IMG/VR virus record: IMGVR_UViG_3300036855_000036
Span: 1 to 54,334 of that record
From: a virus
Lineage: Duplodnaviria > Caudoviricetes
Strand: one strand, 5' to 3'
Length of the DNA stretch: 54,334 nucleotides
Each line of letters opens with the position of its first letter. The stretch's first letter is position 1. This document shows positions 5,153 through 46,003 of the stretch, in pieces. The position numbers were made by a program, and so were the translations under genes. Below the pieces are notes generated by a model. It searched no databases and was not told the DNA's origin. It saw nothing but the letters and a program-made list of their open reading frames with translations.

Positions 5153-6450
5153 CCGGCGACGCGGCCCGCGCGGCCGGGGCGGTCACCAACCCCGGGGGCA
5201 CGGAGCGCCTGCACGCGTACTGGGTGCACGGCGAGGGCGCCGCGAAGATCCACTGGGGCCAGCCGAATGATTTTGACCGGTGCGTCGTCGAGCTCGGCAA
5301 GTACATCCGTGACCCGCAGGGCTACTGCAACCTGGCTCATCACGAGGCGACCGGGATGTGGCCCGCGCAGCACGCGGCAATGGAGAAGAAAGCGACCGGG
5401 AGGTCATCGGTGACGATTACGCAGCGGGCCGAGATGGCCACGTCTGACATCAACGACCTGCCCGACTCTGACTTCGCCTACATCGAAAGCGGCGGCGCGA
5501 AGGACAGCTCCGGCAAGACGGTGCCCCGCGACAAGCGGCACTTCCCACTCCACGACGCCGCGCACGTGCGGGACGCGCTCGGCCGCGCTCCCCAGTCCCC
5601 GTTCGGCGACAAGGCCATGCCCAAGATCAAGGCCGCAGCGAAGAAGTTCGGAGTCGATGTGAGCAGCGACAGCCAGCCCGCGTCCCGCGCGGAGTTCATG
5701 CGCATGTACCCGCTGGAGGACATGCACATCATCCGGTCGGAGAACGGCGGCGACGGCCGCACCGTCGAGGCGTTCGCGGCGGTCTTCGACCAGCAGGCGG
5801 AGATCTCCGACCACGAGGGCCACTACCTCGAGGAGATCGACCGGGGCGCGTTCAACCGGGCGATCGACCACGCCCGCGCGTCCCGCGGCGGCCTGCCCGG
5901 CGCGATCAAGGTCCTCTACAACCACGGCATGACCATCCAGGGCACCCCGTCGGAGCGGTTCTCCGTCCCGATCGGCGTCCCCGTCGAGGTCCGCGCCGAG
6001 GCCCGCGGCCTGCTGACCCGCACCCGCTACTCCGAGACCCCGCTGGCGGACGAGATCCTCGAGTCCGTCCGCGCCGGGTCGATCACCTCCCAGTCGTTCA
6101 CCGGGCGGATCATCCGCTCGACCCCGCAGCTCGCCCGCGGTGACAGGTACCGGCCCCGAAGCGGGGAACTGACGGTCGTGCGCCGCACCGAGCTGGGGTT
6201 CCGCGAGTACGGGCCCGTCCTGTGGCCCGCCTACACGGGCGCTGAGATCCTCGGCGTCCGCATGTCCACTCCCGGCTCCTGGAGCCCGGACCCGGACGAG
6301 GAGCAAGACCCCGGCACCGCGCCCGATGACGCGCCCGCCGCCGGCGACCCGCTGGACCAGCAGGACCAGCACTCGGCCCGGTATCACCAGCACGCGCTTT
6401 ACGAGCTCCGCAGCAAGGAGCAGCGAGAGGCGATCGGGCTGACCTGGTAA
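5149..6450 (+). CDS. HK97 prohead protease fused to two N-terminal accessory domains
   Basis: VEAFAAVFD, EEIDRGAF, VLYNHG, QSFTG, EYGPVLWPAY protease motifs; LPDSDFAY...FPLHDAAHVRDAL (DUF6582-like). Confidence 0.88.
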   Translation: MTGDAARAAGAVTNPGGTERLHAYWVHGEGAAKIHWGQPNDFDRCVVELGKYIRDPQGYCNLAHHEATGMWPAQHAAMEKKATGRSSVTITQRAEMATSDINDLPDSDFAYIESGGAKDSSGKTVPRDKRHFPLHDAAHVRDALGRAPQSPFGDKAMPKIKAAAKKFGVDVSSDSQPASRAEFMRMYPLEDMHIIRSENGGDGRTVEAFAAVFDQQAEISDHEGHYLEEIDRGAFNRAIDHARASRGGLPGAIKVLYNHGMTIQGTPSERFSVPIGVPVEVRAEARGLLTRTRYSETPLADEILESVRAGSITSQSFTGRIIRSTPQLARGDRYRPRSGELTVVRRTELGFREYGPVLWPAYTGAEILGVRMSTPGSWSPDPDEEQDPGTAPDDAPAAGDPLDQQDQHSARYHQHALYELRSKEQREAIGLTW

Positions 6451-6472
6451 CGCGCTGAACGGAGTACGCGTC

Positions 6473-7882
6473 ATGGCGACGCTGAAGGAAAAGACCGAGG
6501 AGATGGCCCGCATCAAGGGCGAGCTCCAGCGGATGGAAACCTCCGAGGAGACCACCGAGGAGAACGACGGCGACCTGCGGGACACCCTCGTCGAGCGGTG
6601 GAAGCAGCTGGACGAGGAAACCAAGCCGATCATCCGGCGGATGGAGGAGATCCGGGCCATCACCCGGACAGCCTCCGACCCGGCGAACCTCGAGCGGCCC
6701 GCCGGCTCCGACGGCGGGGACGACGCCTACCGCGGCGGCAACCCCGACTTCTGGCAGCAGGGCAACCGCAGCCCGTACGAGAACCTGGACGCGGTCCGCA
6801 GCCGGGTCGTCACCCGCGCTGACCTGCGCGCCCGGGCGCTGGACGCGATCGAGCTGGAGGCTAAGCGCGGGAACATGGCCCGCGACTACGCCGAGGCGGC
6901 GACGCTCAAGGCGCAGGACGACCCGGGGATCGCCCGGCACATGCTGCTGACCGGCTCCGAGGAGTACCAGGAGGCGTTCCGCCAGTACGTCGAGGACCCG
7001 CAGGGCATGGCCCAGCGCGCCGCGCTGAGCTTGACCCTCGCAAATGGTGGATATTTGTTGCCTTTTGTGCTAGATCCAACAATTATCCTCACGAACACCG
7101 GCTCCGCTAACCCCTGGCGGCGCATCTCCAACGTGAAGCAGACCACGTCCAACACGTGGAACGGCGTCACGTCGGCCGGCGTGAACGCGGCGTGGCTCGC
7201 TGAGGGCACGGCCGTCACCGACGGCTCCCCGACGGTCGGCAACATCGCGATCACGCCGCAGAAGGCCGCCGCGTGGGTGTTCGGTTCCTATGAAGTCCTC
7301 GAGGACACGGACTTCGGCCAGCAGCTCCCCCGCCTCCTCTCGGACGCGAAGGACCGCCTGGAGGAGAACGCGTTCGCGGTCGGCGCCGGGTCCGGCGGCG
7401 TGCCGCAGGGCGTCATCACCGGCGCGACCACCACGATCAGCACCGCGACGACCCTGGTCGTGGCGATCGGCGACATCTACGCGACGCAGGCCGCACTCCC
7501 GCCCCGGTTCCGCAACGCCCCCGGCACCTCGTGGGCCGCGAACGTCGCCCAGATCAACCGCACCCGCCAGCTCGACACCGCGGGCGGCGCGTCCTTCTGG
7601 ACGAATTTGGGGAAAGGCGCGCCCGAAACTTTGCTCGGTGCCCCGATCTACGAGTCCAGCTCCATGGACCCGGCCCTGGCCGCCTCGACCAAGCTCATGG
7701 TATTTGGCGATTTCGGCCAGTACTATGTGATTGACCGAGTCGGGGTTAGCCTTATTTATGAACCCCTAGTCAAGGACCAGACCACCGCGCTCCCGAGCGG
7801 AAGAGCAGGCTGGTTTATGTTCTGGCGCGTAGGTGCGCAGGTCGCGGTTCCGAACGCGTTCAGGGTTCTGATCGGCAGGTAA
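6473..7882 (+). CDS. Major capsid protein (HK97 fold)
   Basis: Coiled-coil delta domain, GGYLLP, AWLAEG, TLLGAPI, FGDFGQYYVIDR. Confidence 0.95.
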   Translation: MATLKEKTEEMARIKGELQRMETSEETTEENDGDLRDTLVERWKQLDEETKPIIRRMEEIRAITRTASDPANLERPAGSDGGDDAYRGGNPDFWQQGNRSPYENLDAVRSRVVTRADLRARALDAIELEAKRGNMARDYAEAATLKAQDDPGIARHMLLTGSEEYQEAFRQYVEDPQGMAQRAALSLTLANGGYLLPFVLDPTIILTNTGSANPWRRISNVKQTTSNTWNGVTSAGVNAAWLAEGTAVTDGSPTVGNIAITPQKAAAWVFGSYEVLEDTDFGQQLPRLLSDAKDRLEENAFAVGAGSGGVPQGVITGATTTISTATTLVVAIGDIYATQAALPPRFRNAPGTSWAANVAQINRTRQLDTAGGASFWTNLGKGAPETLLGAPIYESSSMDPALAASTKLMVFGDFGQYYVIDRVGVSLIYEPLVKDQTTALPSGRAGWFMFWRVGAQVAVPNAFRVLIGR

Positions 7883-7900
7883 TCCCAAAGCATTCGTGGC

Positions 7901-7945
7901 TTTCCCTAGTTGAGAATCGTATAAGCTGGTTCTCGACTAGGGAGG
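7901..7945 (+). promoter_or_regulatory. Hairpin sequestering the HNH ribosome-binding site, with -10-like TAAGCT in loop
   Basis: TCCCTAGTTGAGAA (7903-16) pairs with TTCTCGACTAGGGA (7930-43); SD GGGAGG at 7940-45. Confidence 0.6.
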
Positions 7946-7950
7946 CCAGG

Positions 7951-8718
7951 ATGAAAGAGTGCTCTCGCGACGGCTGCGGCCGGCCAGTGGCGGCGCGGAA
8001 CATGTGCGATGCGCATTACCGGGCGTGGCTGAAGGAACGGCCGCCCGGCCCCCGTCGGACCGGGGTTCCGGTAGCCGAGTGCTCGTACGAGGGCTGCACG
8101 CGCCCGGCGCGGGCCGGGACGGCGATCTGCAAGCGGCACTACACCGCCGAGTGGCATGCCCGTCAGGGGCCGTGCTCGGTCGAGGGCTGCGAGCGGCAGG
8201 CCAACGCGGCTCACCTGTGCGAGATGCATTACAAGCGGAAGCAGCGCGGCCTGGCGGACTGGGACAAGCTGATCGCCCCGCGCATGAAGCGGGACGGCGA
8301 CTGCGCCGTAGATGGATGCGAGCGGCCCGTGTACGCCAGGGGCCACTGCACGATGCACCACCAGCGCGTCGCAGTCCTGGGCCATGTGGACGCGGGGCCG
8401 GTCGGACGGCTCAAGGCCGCTTCAGGGCAGGGCAGCCTGGACCCTAGCGGCTACCGGGTTATCACGGTCGGCGGCCAGCGCTACCTGGAGCACCGATGGG
8501 TGATGGAGCAGCAGCTCGGCCGCCCGCTGTGGCCGGATGAGAGCGTGCACCACAAGAACGGCGCGCGCGCTGACAACCGGCCGGAGAACCTCGAGCTGTG
8601 GGCTAAAGCGCAGCCAGCCGGGCAGCGTGTGGCCGACATCATGGCGTTCTACGTGGAGCGTTACCCGGAACTGGCGGAGCAGGTATTGCGCAAGGTGAAG
8701 CGCAGGAAGGCAGGCTGA
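7951..8718 (+). CDS. Free-standing HNH endonuclease with four N-terminal C3H Zn-finger repeats
   Basis: EHRWVME, VHHKNGARADNRPENLELW; 4x CxxxGCxRxxxAxxxCxxH. Confidence 0.9.
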   Translation: MKECSRDGCGRPVAARNMCDAHYRAWLKERPPGPRRTGVPVAECSYEGCTRPARAGTAICKRHYTAEWHARQGPCSVEGCERQANAAHLCEMHYKRKQRGLADWDKLIAPRMKRDGDCAVDGCERPVYARGHCTMHHQRVAVLGHVDAGPVGRLKAASGQGSLDPSGYRVITVGGQRYLEHRWVMEQQLGRPLWPDESVHHKNGARADNRPENLELWAKAQPAGQRVADIMAFYVERYPELAEQVLRKVKRRKAG

Positions 8719-8721
8719 GTC

Positions 8722-37719: not shown

Positions 37720-38130
37720 ATGAAAGACCCGACCAAGGCAGACCTGGCCACCGCAGTCGCGAGGCTTACCGAGGAGAACGCGGGCCTGCGCGAGCTGCTC
37801 GCCGCGGTCAGCGCCTACGCGGAACTGCCGCGTCCCGCCAGCTCCGACAACCGCAGCTACGGGTACGAGCTGGAGCGCCGCGCCGACGCGATCGCGATCT
37901 GGGCTAACGGCGACCGGGAGGACATGGCCCCCGACGTCTACGTGCTCGTCATCCAGGACCGGGCGAAGCACCTCCGCGAGGAGGCCGCCAGGCCGGTGCG
38001 GTACGAGGTGCGCGCCGAGCCGGAGCCGTGCCCCTGCGGCGCGGAGATCCCGGCCAGCGAATGGCGCGAAGGCCACCGTACCTGCGGCAGCGAGACCTGC
38101 GCCGAGACTGCCGCGAGCGTGACCGCATGA
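37720..38130 (+). CDS. Hypothetical protein
   Basis: AAGGAG SD. Confidence 0.7.
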   Translation: MKDPTKADLATAVARLTEENAGLRELLAAVSAYAELPRPASSDNRSYGYELERRADAIAIWANGDREDMAPDVYVLVIQDRAKHLREEAARPVRYEVRAEPEPCPCGAEIPASEWREGHRTCGSETCAETAASVTA

Positions 38131-38771
38131 ACGGCCGCCGCCCCGAGGCTGAGCCGCTGCTGACGCCGGCCGAGGTCGCCACGATGTTCAGAGTCGAGCG
38201 CACCTCGCCGACGTTCGTTGAGCGTGTGTTCGCCAAGGTCGACGCGTCGGGCGACTGCTGGGAATGGACTGCCGCGAATATCGATGGCTACGGCGCCGTC
38301 GGGCGCGGCAGCCGCGAGGCGGGCACCATGCAGGCGCACCGCGCCGTGTGGGAGCTGCTCGTCGGCCCGATAGAGGACGGCCTGCAGCTCGACCACCTGT
38401 GCCGCAACCACGCGTGCGTCAACCCTGATCACCTGGAGCCGGTCACGGACGAGGAGAACAAGCGGCGCGGCTACAGCATCGCGGTCTTGCACAGCCTGCG
38501 CGACACCTGCGGCTTCGGCCACCCCAAGGACGGCATCACCCGGCGCAAGGACGGCACGTCCCACCGCTACTGCAAGACCTGTGCTCGGCTGAAGGCCAGC
38601 GCGAGGTACGTCCCCAAGGGACCGCGCACGCACTGCAAGCACCGCCACGAGTTCACCCCCGAGAACACCTACACCGATGGCCGCGGGTGCCGGCAGTGCA
38701 AGGCATGCAAGATCGGCCGGCAGCGCGCGGCGCGCGCCGTGGCCCGCGCTGAGATGGGGAAGGCTGCCTGA
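38127..38771 (+). CDS. HNH homing endonuclease fused to the BldC N-terminus
   Basis: Begins EAEPLLTPAEVATMFRV, then CWEW, AHRAVW, DHLCRNHACVNPDHLEPVT..EN and C-terminal THCKHRHEFTPENT. Confidence 0.9.
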   Translation: MNGRRPEAEPLLTPAEVATMFRVERTSPTFVERVFAKVDASGDCWEWTAANIDGYGAVGRGSREAGTMQAHRAVWELLVGPIEDGLQLDHLCRNHACVNPDHLEPVTDEENKRRGYSIAVLHSLRDTCGFGHPKDGITRRKDGTSHRYCKTCARLKASARYVPKGPRTHCKHRHEFTPENTYTDGRGCRQCKACKIGRQRAARAVARAEMGKAA

Positions 38772-45065: not shown

Positions 45066-46003
45066 TGGCCCGTATCCGCTCGATCAAGCCGGACTTCTTC
45101 ACGTCCGAGACAATCGCCGAGCTGCCGCTGTCGGCGCGGCTCACGTTCATCGGGCTGTGGACCTACGTCGACGACAACGGCGTCGGCCAGTACAACGAGA
45201 TGCTCATCAATGCGGCCGTCTGGCCGCTGGAGGAGAACGCTCTCGAAACCCTCGCCAGGACCCGGGAGGACATCGACGAGCTCGCGGACGCCGATCTTGT
45301 CGTCCTCTACCGCGACGACCGCAAGCGGTACGTGTTCATCGCGTCATGGGACGAGCACCAGAAAGTCGACCACCCGCGCAAGCCGCGCTACCCGCGGCCT
45401 GGTGCGGACGGGTGCGAGAAGCTTCCCGCCGTGCCTCGCGAGACCTTCGCGAGACCTTCGCGAGAGCCGCGCGAAATCCCCGCGAATCACCTCCCGGACG
45501 ATGCCGGCGGCAATCCTCGCGAGACCTTCGCGAATGACTCGCGAGACCTTCGCGAGGATAGTGGCGACCTAGGGCAAAATGAGGCATCTACCTGCGACGA
45601 CACCACCCTCGCGAGCGACTCGCGAGAACCTCGCGAAGACCTCGCGCCTGAGCAGGGAGCAGGGAGCAGGGAGCAGGGATCAAAATCTCTTGGCCGGCAA
45701 GCCGGCCGATCGCCCGTTCCCGGCTCGGATGACGACGCCGACTTCGCCGCATTCTGGTCCGCCTACCCGCGCAAGGTCGGCAAGGGGCAAGCCCGGAGCG
45801 CCTGGCGCAGCGCACTCGGCAAGGCCGACGCGAAGACGATCATCGACGCGACGGAGCGCTACCGGGACGACCCGCGGCGCACCGCCGACTTCACCGCCCA
45901 CCCGTCCACCTGGCTTAACGGCGAGCGCTGGGCCGACGTGCCGCGCCACCTCGAGCCCGTCCCGGACACGCCGCGCCCCCAGTCGTTCCCGTGGGAGAAC
46001 TGA
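45065..46003 (+). CDS. Phage replication initiator
   Basis: ARIRSIKPDFF, ARLTFIGLW..DDNG, WDEHQK, FWSAYPRKVGK, HPSTWLNGERW. Confidence 0.88.
   Translation: MARIRSIKPDFFTSETIAELPLSARLTFIGLWTYVDDNGVGQYNEMLINAAVWPLEENALETLARTREDIDELADADLVVLYRDDRKRYVFIASWDEHQKVDHPRKPRYPRPGADGCEKLPAVPRETFARPSREPREIPANHLPDDAGGNPRETFANDSRDLREDSGDLGQNEASTCDDTTLASDSREPREDLAPEQGAGSREQGSKSLGRQAGRSPVPGSDDDADFAAFWSAYPRKVGKGQARSAWRSALGKADAKTIIDATERYRDDPRRTADFTAHPSTWLNGERWADVPRHLEPVPDTPRPQSFPWEN
45435..45680. repeat. Iteron-like repeats (putative replication origin)
   Basis: Many TCGCGA cores in 11-bp units (TCGCGAGACCT) plus GAGCAGG tandem repeats within the initiator gene. Confidence 0.65.

Follow-up and report, generated by a model that had tools for sequence, protein, structure and literature searches.

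A recoded patch in the capsid gene of an actinobacterial siphovirus is a candidate allele of a contested homing site

A close described counterpart of the locus considered here is F-CphI, a nuclease with an Endonuclease VII motif that is encoded beside psbA. As its published account describes it, the enzyme cuts the intronless psbA allele, and the intron protects the phage's own genome (PMC6083498). Two other groups of elements bear on the comparison: the free-standing endonucleases of phage T4, to which we return at the end, and the introns of the Cluster J mycobacteriophages LittleE and BAKA, whose splicing was shown by reverse transcription PCR (PMC3706429). Here, we analyze the major capsid protein gene of a virus (Duplodnaviria; Caudoviricetes) represented by a 54,334-nucleotide stretch of DNA, which we call the window (IMG/VR record IMGVR_UViG_3300036855_000036). 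The window spans a complete virus record, carries direct terminal repeats, and has a G+C content of 70.6%; its gene set (portal, prohead protease, HK97-type capsid, tape measure, serine integrase, WhiB, and RecE/RecT-like) is that of a temperate actinobacterial siphovirus. The capsid gene (6473–7882, + strand) is intron-free and encodes 469 amino acids (Pfam Phage_capsid at residues 192–466, E 1.5e-36; PHROG major head protein). Within it, at 7040–7084, lies a short patch in which a conserved protein motif is spelled mostly with A/T-ending codons. By comparing the window with its relatives, we found that recoding of this patch is associated with Endonuclease VII-type genes next to the capsid gene, that predicted group I introns are inserted in the same patch, and that recoded versions are shared between otherwise diverged genes.

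The recoded patch and its counterparts in relatives

We found that 12 of the 15 codons at 7040–7084 end in A or T, in a sequence identical to that quoted in a sequence-only reading of the window made by a model. This is the highest count among all 11,799 15-codon stretches in 47 open reading frames (ORFs) of the window (12,457 codons, A/T-ending fraction 0.079), corresponding to a binomial P of 2.1e-11, or 2.5e-7 after multiplication by the number of stretches; the runners-up, at 11/15 and 10/15, lie in less certain ORFs. The encoded motif, LANGGYLLPFVLDPTI, is unchanged, each of its positions being shared by a fraction of 0.90 to 0.99 of the relatives. Synonymous differences from the nearest relative (L001, 86% identical in the protein) affect 13/15 codons of the patch and 83/371 codons in the rest of the gene (P 1.9e-7). 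The patch is not an assembly artefact, because identical contigs (158 and 159 nt, zero differences) cover it in two further soil runs from two other studies. The central observation of the sequence-only reading, an AT-rich recoded patch in which the protein motif is kept, is therefore borne out as a genome-wide maximum, and it is both real and highly non-random.

The limits of the patch and its isolation within the gene required revision. Defining a rare codon as one used by fewer than 20% of relatives, we place recoded tract A at codons 186–204 (7028–7084, + strand), where 15 of 19 codons are rare. The interval 7040–7084 proposed earlier is thus contained in the recoded tract, which by this measure begins further upstream, at 7028. 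A small second run of rare codons lies at codons 211–214 (7103–7114, + strand; 3/4 rare) and includes S211, which is non-canonical in 8/8 of the Endonuclease VII carriers described below. The rest of the gene had been taken to be almost entirely G/C-ending; with a third-position G+C of 0.89, the gene in fact contains 37 additional A/T-ending codons outside the patch, mostly clustered (5/23 in codons 370–392, 12/25 in codons 410–434, and 8/27 in codons 440–466, versus 9/359 elsewhere). Codons 243–244 (7199–7204) form a conserved exception to the G/C-ending rule, A/T-ending codons being kept there by the relatives (fractions 0.89 and 0.64). Elsewhere in the window, 15-codon stretches rich in A/T-ending codons occur at about 47917 (11/15), 33637 on the – strand (10/15), 18324 (9/15), and 45542–45647 (8/15), although some of these ORF calls are uncertain.

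A search with the capsid protein returned 63 viral contigs, one contig from a metagenome-assembled genome, and 80 metagenome contigs, with identities of 54–86%. These collapse to 116 non-redundant alleles, of which 114 cover the entire 17-codon patch region used for comparison (codons 190–206); a capsid tree included 96 of the 116 alleles and the window. One canonical G/C-rich sequence encodes the motif in most relatives, such that 57/114 alleles have only 0–1 A/T-ending codons of 17. At least five (and up to 10) A/T-ending codons were present in 33/114 alleles, and the window has 12. The window's nearest relatives (L001, L066, L002, and L003; 83–86% identity) are all canonical in the patch, where they differ from the window at 13–15 of 14–15 codons, compared with a fraction of 0.22–0.28 elsewhere. 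When named phages were searched at the DNA level with the capsid and HNH region, only short matches to the HNH gene were found. Because the best capsid relatives among named phages are only 33% identical, all comparisons rest on uncultured contigs.

Endonuclease VII-type genes, introns, and signs of conversion at the patch

Downstream of the capsid gene, a variable slot extends to the next conserved gene (7883–8721, + strand). It measures 840 bp in the window versus 63 bp in L001, and gaps of 65 to 2102 nt separate the two genes in the relatives. Across the 116 alleles, the slot holds an HNH_3 gene in 30, an Endonuclease_7 gene in 9, a GIY-YIG gene in 3, and none of these or other content in 53, with 21 of unknown content; three nuclease families alternate in the same intergenic position. 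The Endonuclease_7 ORFs (Pfam) encode 224–252 amino acids with N-terminal zinc ribbons, and the nine alleles that carry them are scattered over the capsid tree. In eight of the nine, 6–9 of the 17 patch codons are A/T-ending, while the ninth, L059, has 3/17 together with an intron inside the patch (at site A1, described below). Thus, the patch is recoded (six or more A/T-ending codons) or split by an intron at the first site in 9/9 Endonuclease VII carriers, versus 14/84 of the remaining alleles whose slot content is known (Fisher P 8.5e-7). The carriers' mean is 6.8 of 17 A/T-ending codons, and in 6/6 cases the carrier exceeds its nearest non-carrier. A nuclease search of viral contigs yielded a tenth carrier, L163, from the same capsid family, in which 10/17 patch codons are A/T-ending compared with 12/331 in the rest of the gene. 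We conclude from these sequence comparisons that recoding of the patch in the relatives is associated with an Endonuclease VII-type gene in the slot.

The capsid genes of relatives also contain frame-changing insertions of 265–298 nt, which are devoid of ORFs and belong to one family. All 15 first-found copies can be excised between a T that closes the upstream exon and a G that closes the insertion, which recovers the reading frame and the protein; only T...G boundaries were searched, and the result is that boundaries of this type exist and recover the protein. In the structure predicted for the family, 94.6% of cells are paired and 26/57 pairs carry compensatory changes (changed on both sides), which 0/500 shuffles matched, while slid-alignment controls reached 31–38% paired. 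Of the 15 copies in the 10 loci scanned with Rfam RF00028, a single one, in L061, reached the gathering score (72 bits). A covariance model recovered 15 copies in 10/64 loci and 9 in 80 further loci (5 of these 9 being duplicate alleles), all of them inside the capsid gene and none in the window; neither intron model R1 nor Rfam gave a match anywhere in the window. The family is ~74% identical to the BAKA and LittleE introns, R1 scoring 156 bits on LittleE, and the LittleE capsid intron sits at ...NGTGG/YAVP, the same GG/Y place as site A1. By these sequence criteria, we take the insertions to be ORF-less group I introns homologous to the spliced introns of Cluster J.

Eight intron sites were found, and the first two fall within the patch. 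Site A1 lies after G193 (introns in L059 and L143), and the equivalent place in the window is G193/Y194 (7049–7054, + strand; junction 7051/7052). Site A2 lies after D201 (introns in L053, L061, L062, and L144), equivalent to D201/P202 in the window (7073–7078, + strand; junction 7075/7076). The remaining sites are B1 in V269 (L059), B3 after G271 (L063), B2 in V275 (L062), C after G380 (L054), D1 in V423 (L063), and D2 after G446 (eight non-redundant alleles and L163). The intron-bearing capsid genes are L005, L022, L029, L033, L053, L054, L059, L061, L062, L063, L104, L137, L143, L144, and L163, and a single gene holds up to three copies (L062 and L063). The guide sequence of the intron varies by site, and parts of the intron are common to copies at different sites.

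Recoded stretches of the window lie at or around the places equivalent to the other sites as well. Zone B (codons 269–275; 7277–7297, + strand), equivalent to sites B1, B3, and B2, is weakly recoded, with GGT, TAT, and GAA in the window. Recoded tract C (codons 378–389; 7604–7639, + strand) straddles site C (G380/K381; 7612/7613); codons 378–381 (7604–7615) are rare at 4/4 positions, and nearly every codon of the tract differs from L001. The recoded 3' end (codons 410–465; 7700–7867, + strand) comprises the 12/25 and 8/27 clusters and holds sites D1 and D2, the latter at G446/W447 (7810/7811). When the slot contents of the relatives were compared, no nuclease type was associated with the N378–K381 stretch. 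Overall, 38 of the window's 49 A/T-ending codons are within 12 codons of an intron site, a zone of 134/469 codons, although these codons are clustered and a P value for closeness to the sites therefore overstates the case.

Recoded versions of the patch are common to genes that have otherwise diverged: of the 17 patch codons, 15 are the same in L058 and L105, and 15 in L013 and L019, against codon identities elsewhere of 0.30 and 0.52, respectively. L131 and L095, which encode near-identical proteins, differ at 15/17 of codons 192–208, all synonymously and in the patch alone; some of these changes swap one G/C-ending codon for another. L031 (with an HNH gene) and L032 (with an intact Endonuclease VII ORF) have capsid proteins that are identical outside 24 masked patch codons, and their slot nucleases are different. 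These patterns fit the repair of double-strand breaks at a homing site as described for T-even phages (PMC2988022, PMC2790892), and they also fit the F-CphI/psbA case as its account presents it (PMC6083498). A larger mosaic block is seen between L038 and L108, whose proteins are near-identical: their DNA is almost the same except in codons 176–400, where most synonymous sites differ without change to the protein.

On balance, we lean toward reading the window's patch as a contested homing site of the capsid gene, present as an allele that lacks an intron, is heavily recoded, has been converted, and is probably resistant to cleavage. In this model, the target would be the canonical G/C-rich sequence that encodes the conserved motif LANGGYLLPFVLDPT in most relatives and that holds two insertion sites of ORF-less group I introns. 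An Endonuclease VII-type nuclease would cut this canonical sequence in co-infecting relatives, with the carrier's copy serving as the template for repair. Given the ~850 bp between the target and the nuclease gene, many repair tracts would copy the resistant stretch without the gene; recoded stretches would therefore spread as short conversion tracts, and they would persist because they are no longer cut. The window, a non-carrier, would have received its stretch in a short conversion tract, or else inherited it from an ancestor with an Endonuclease VII gene that gave way later to the present HNH gene. What the comparisons show directly is the recoding, the intron sites, the associations, and that diverged genes have recoded versions in common; cleavage, resistance, and the direction of conversion are what we infer.

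Several observations weigh against this model. An Endonuclease VII-type gene was searched for in the window and is absent, and the window's link to this nuclease is thus only by analogy with its relatives. The window keeps the canonical codon at V199 and I205, which are changed in 7/7 and 8/8 Endonuclease VII carriers, respectively. An exact 24-base piece of its patch had no match in the viral contigs; the closest sampled version, that of L012, matches the window at 11/17 codons, and none of the sampled alleles carries the window's version. The 14/84 non-carriers with a recoded or intron-split patch include the HNH carriers L103 and L117, each at 10/17. The nuclease search also gave four carriers of more distant Endonuclease VII genes in distant capsid families, one with a patch at 6/17 and three, with capsids only 34–35% identical, at 1/17. 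The Endonuclease VII gene of L059 (6100–6771) is without two residues of the otherwise invariant DHDH catalytic motif. The family-wide excess of A/T-ending codons at intron sites comes mainly from the 3' sites, sites A, B, and C alone giving P 0.15. Finally, the sister pairs compared below were picked by eye from the capsid tree.

A broader proposal can be offered more tentatively, and we would not put it at even chances. The recoded stretches could be discrete immunity cassettes against Endonuclease VII-type homing nucleases, consisting of a few alternative synonymous spellings of one motif, which short gene conversion would carry between diverged phages whether or not the nuclease gene moved with them. 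ORF-less introns and recoding would then be interchangeable forms of protection, and the slot would be a battleground of three mutually replacing nuclease families, each marking its own stretch.

Intron scars, the adjacent HNH gene, and other explanations

An alternative that we consider unlikely is that the patch is a passive scar: a former A1 or A2 intron would have brought in the exon flanks of its donor by co-conversion and later been lost precisely, leaving a stretch with no present role and no resistance. Both intron sites do lie within the patch, and co-conversion of exon flanks during homing is treated as established in the published description (PMC2988022). Moreover, the A2-intron alleles all have GAT/CCA at the junction, as the window does, and intron-bearing alleles have 2–6 of 17 A/T-ending patch codons. 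These flanks, however, are less recoded than the patch of the window (12/17) or those of the intron-free alleles L012, L103, and L117 (10/17). GAT together with CCA occurs in only 2/102 intron-free alleles, approximately as expected for independence, and this count by eye gave no GAT plus CCA signature of intron loss. A scar would also leave the 9/9 association with Endonuclease VII unexplained. The intron-bearing alleles and their nearest intron-free relatives are too diverged to resolve co-conversion tracts.

We judge somewhat less probable still the explanation put forward in the sequence-only reading, according to which the adjacent HNH nuclease would cut the canonical sequence in relatives without the gene, the patch being its immunised target. 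The free-standing HNH_3 endonuclease gene (7951–8718, + strand) encodes 255 amino acids, with four Cys-rich repeats before the nuclease motif (Pfam HNH_3, E 3.2e-10; PHROG HNH endonuclease); a PDB sequence search with this protein gave nothing meaningful. It is a clean insertion polymorphism, optional between conserved genes and present in 30/95 alleles of known status. In favor of this explanation, the window holds both the HNH gene and the strongest patch, patch recoding is on average somewhat higher in HNH carriers than where the slot is empty or otherwise filled (3.27 versus 1.98 of 17, P 0.087), and L103 and L117 are strongly recoded carriers. In addition, the HNH homologues are only 35–66% identical, so their specificities may differ. 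Among the 116 alleles, however, recoding of the patch does not follow the HNH gene. Fewer than five of 17 codons are A/T-ending in 19/30 carriers, nine of which have 0/17, and the nearest homologues of the window's HNH go with patches at 3/17 (L052, the nearest, at 66% identity), 4/17, and 0/17. On a tree of 20/31 HNH proteins (11 carriers without an ORF of at least 170 amino acids being excluded), the state of the patch is scattered, with L103 (10/17) sister to L108 (2/17), and in the eye-picked sister pairs the patch goes up with the HNH gene in six and down in four. Finally, L012 has an empty slot (75 nt from the capsid gene to the next gene) and yet is recoded at 10/17, so that a relative without the HNH gene does have a recoded patch, an outcome that the sequence-only reading had itself named as refuting.

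The consistent footprint of the HNH gene lies instead at the 3' end of the capsid gene. The A/T-ending fraction was 0.229 in HNH carriers versus 0.135 in alleles without HNH for codons 410–434, and 0.314 versus 0.172 for codons 440–466; these values come from an early grouping that counted Endonuclease VII and GIY-YIG carriers as HNH-less, and the result held after reclassification. In the sister pairs, codons 410–434 were up in 11 and down in one, and codons 440–466 were up in 11 and down in none. The D2 intron is also linked to the HNH gene, which is carried by 6/8 D2-intron alleles versus 24/87 others (P 0.011). These comparisons indicate that the HNH gene is associated with recoding of the last 60 codons of the capsid gene and not convincingly with the patch. 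Since HNH goes with the 3' end and Endonuclease VII with the patch, two nuclease families that occupy one slot go with different recoded stretches. The homing-target explanation of the sequence-only reading is thus supported in kind, as a synonymously recoded target of a free-standing nuclease encoded beside the capsid gene, but the enzyme that it named is not.

A function unrelated to homing (escape from clustered regularly interspaced short palindromic repeats [CRISPR] or restriction, a translational pause as ribosomes enter the mature capsid domain, an internal promoter, or an RNA structure) seems to us very improbable: the patch does sit where the Pfam capsid domain starts (residue 192), and a run of rare codons could conceivably slow ribosomes, but the feature is not conserved (0–1 of 17 in half of the alleles, 57/114), a scan of 6400–8000 found no promoter-like site, the fold of the patch RNA is no better than that of shuffles (z –0.76), a search of 401 Actinomycetota genomes (including the unpublished G049 and G337) gave no spacer-like match, only short matches without adjoining repeat arrays, a weak negative that also bears on the CRISPR escape raised as an alternative in the sequence-only reading, and such a function predicts neither the coincidence with intron sites nor that with the Endonuclease VII gene.

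Two further features of the window may be recorded here. A second HNH_3 gene lies at 38028–38771; the Cys-rich stretch at its C terminus is similar to the final part of the LittleE intron ORF (46% over 37 residues). We considered the LittleE intron ORF as a relative of the HNH encoded at 7951–8718 and rejected it, as the two are unrelated and the 37-residue Cys-rich stretch is shared only with the second HNH. At 381–1857, the large terminase is seemingly split into two overlapping ORFs in different frames (381–1340 and 1315–1857), and the match to the terminase nuclease domain stops short where the first ORF ends.

Comparison with known homing systems

If the window's patch is indeed a recoded allele of a contested homing site, this family of uncultured soil phages provides a natural allele series for a single short target, which occurs in its canonical form, in four or more recoded spellings, and split by introns at two positions, with three alternative nuclease genes nearby. 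Such a series would make it possible to test with synthetic substrates how homing nucleases choose their targets, how many silent changes escape requires, and whether an intron and recoding are equivalent. It would extend collaborative homing, known from a photosynthesis gene of cyanophages, to a capsid gene of high-G+C actinobacterial phages. It would further mean that a sharp patch of odd codon usage in a conserved phage gene can point to a homing site, even in a genome that lacks the nuclease responsible.

Of the described systems, F-CphI/psbA of cyanophage S-PM2 (collaborative homing; 'DHHRN' family) is the one that we compare most directly, within what its published account covers. As in that system, the nuclease of the relatives has an Endo VII motif and adjoins a conserved gene that holds ORF-less group I introns, a likeness that rests on the shared Pfam family. 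Also as in that system, every Endonuclease VII carrier has its presumed target altered or interrupted, L059 having the A1 intron where its recoding is weak. Unlike in F-CphI/psbA as described, protection here would come mostly from dense synonymous recoding rather than from an intron, and ~850 bp separate the presumed target from the nuclease gene. Neither an intron nor an Endo VII-motif nuclease is present in the window, which shares only the altered state of the target.

The introns of the relatives find their counterpart in LittleE, with the differences that the LittleE intron carries a LAGLIDADG-like ORF while the copies here are ORF-less, that the capsid genes are only distantly related, and that the window is intron-free. 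A second likeness is to the T4 free-standing endonucleases SegF, SegG, and MobE, which are described in terms of intronless homing, marker exclusion, and trans homing (PMC2988022, PMC2790892). In those accounts, as here, an optional nuclease gene lies between conserved genes, gene conversion is localized around a cut site that may be hundreds of bases from the gene, and a neighboring ORF-less or defunct intron can be carried along. The window's HNH gene, its recoded 3' end, and the D2 intron fit this T4 pattern. Unlike in T4, any of three nuclease families can occupy the slot, and two of the three are associated with separate stretches of a single gene, as seen from comparative evidence only. 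We conclude that the locus adds a further case to a known kind of homing conflict and that its comparative signal is unusually clear.

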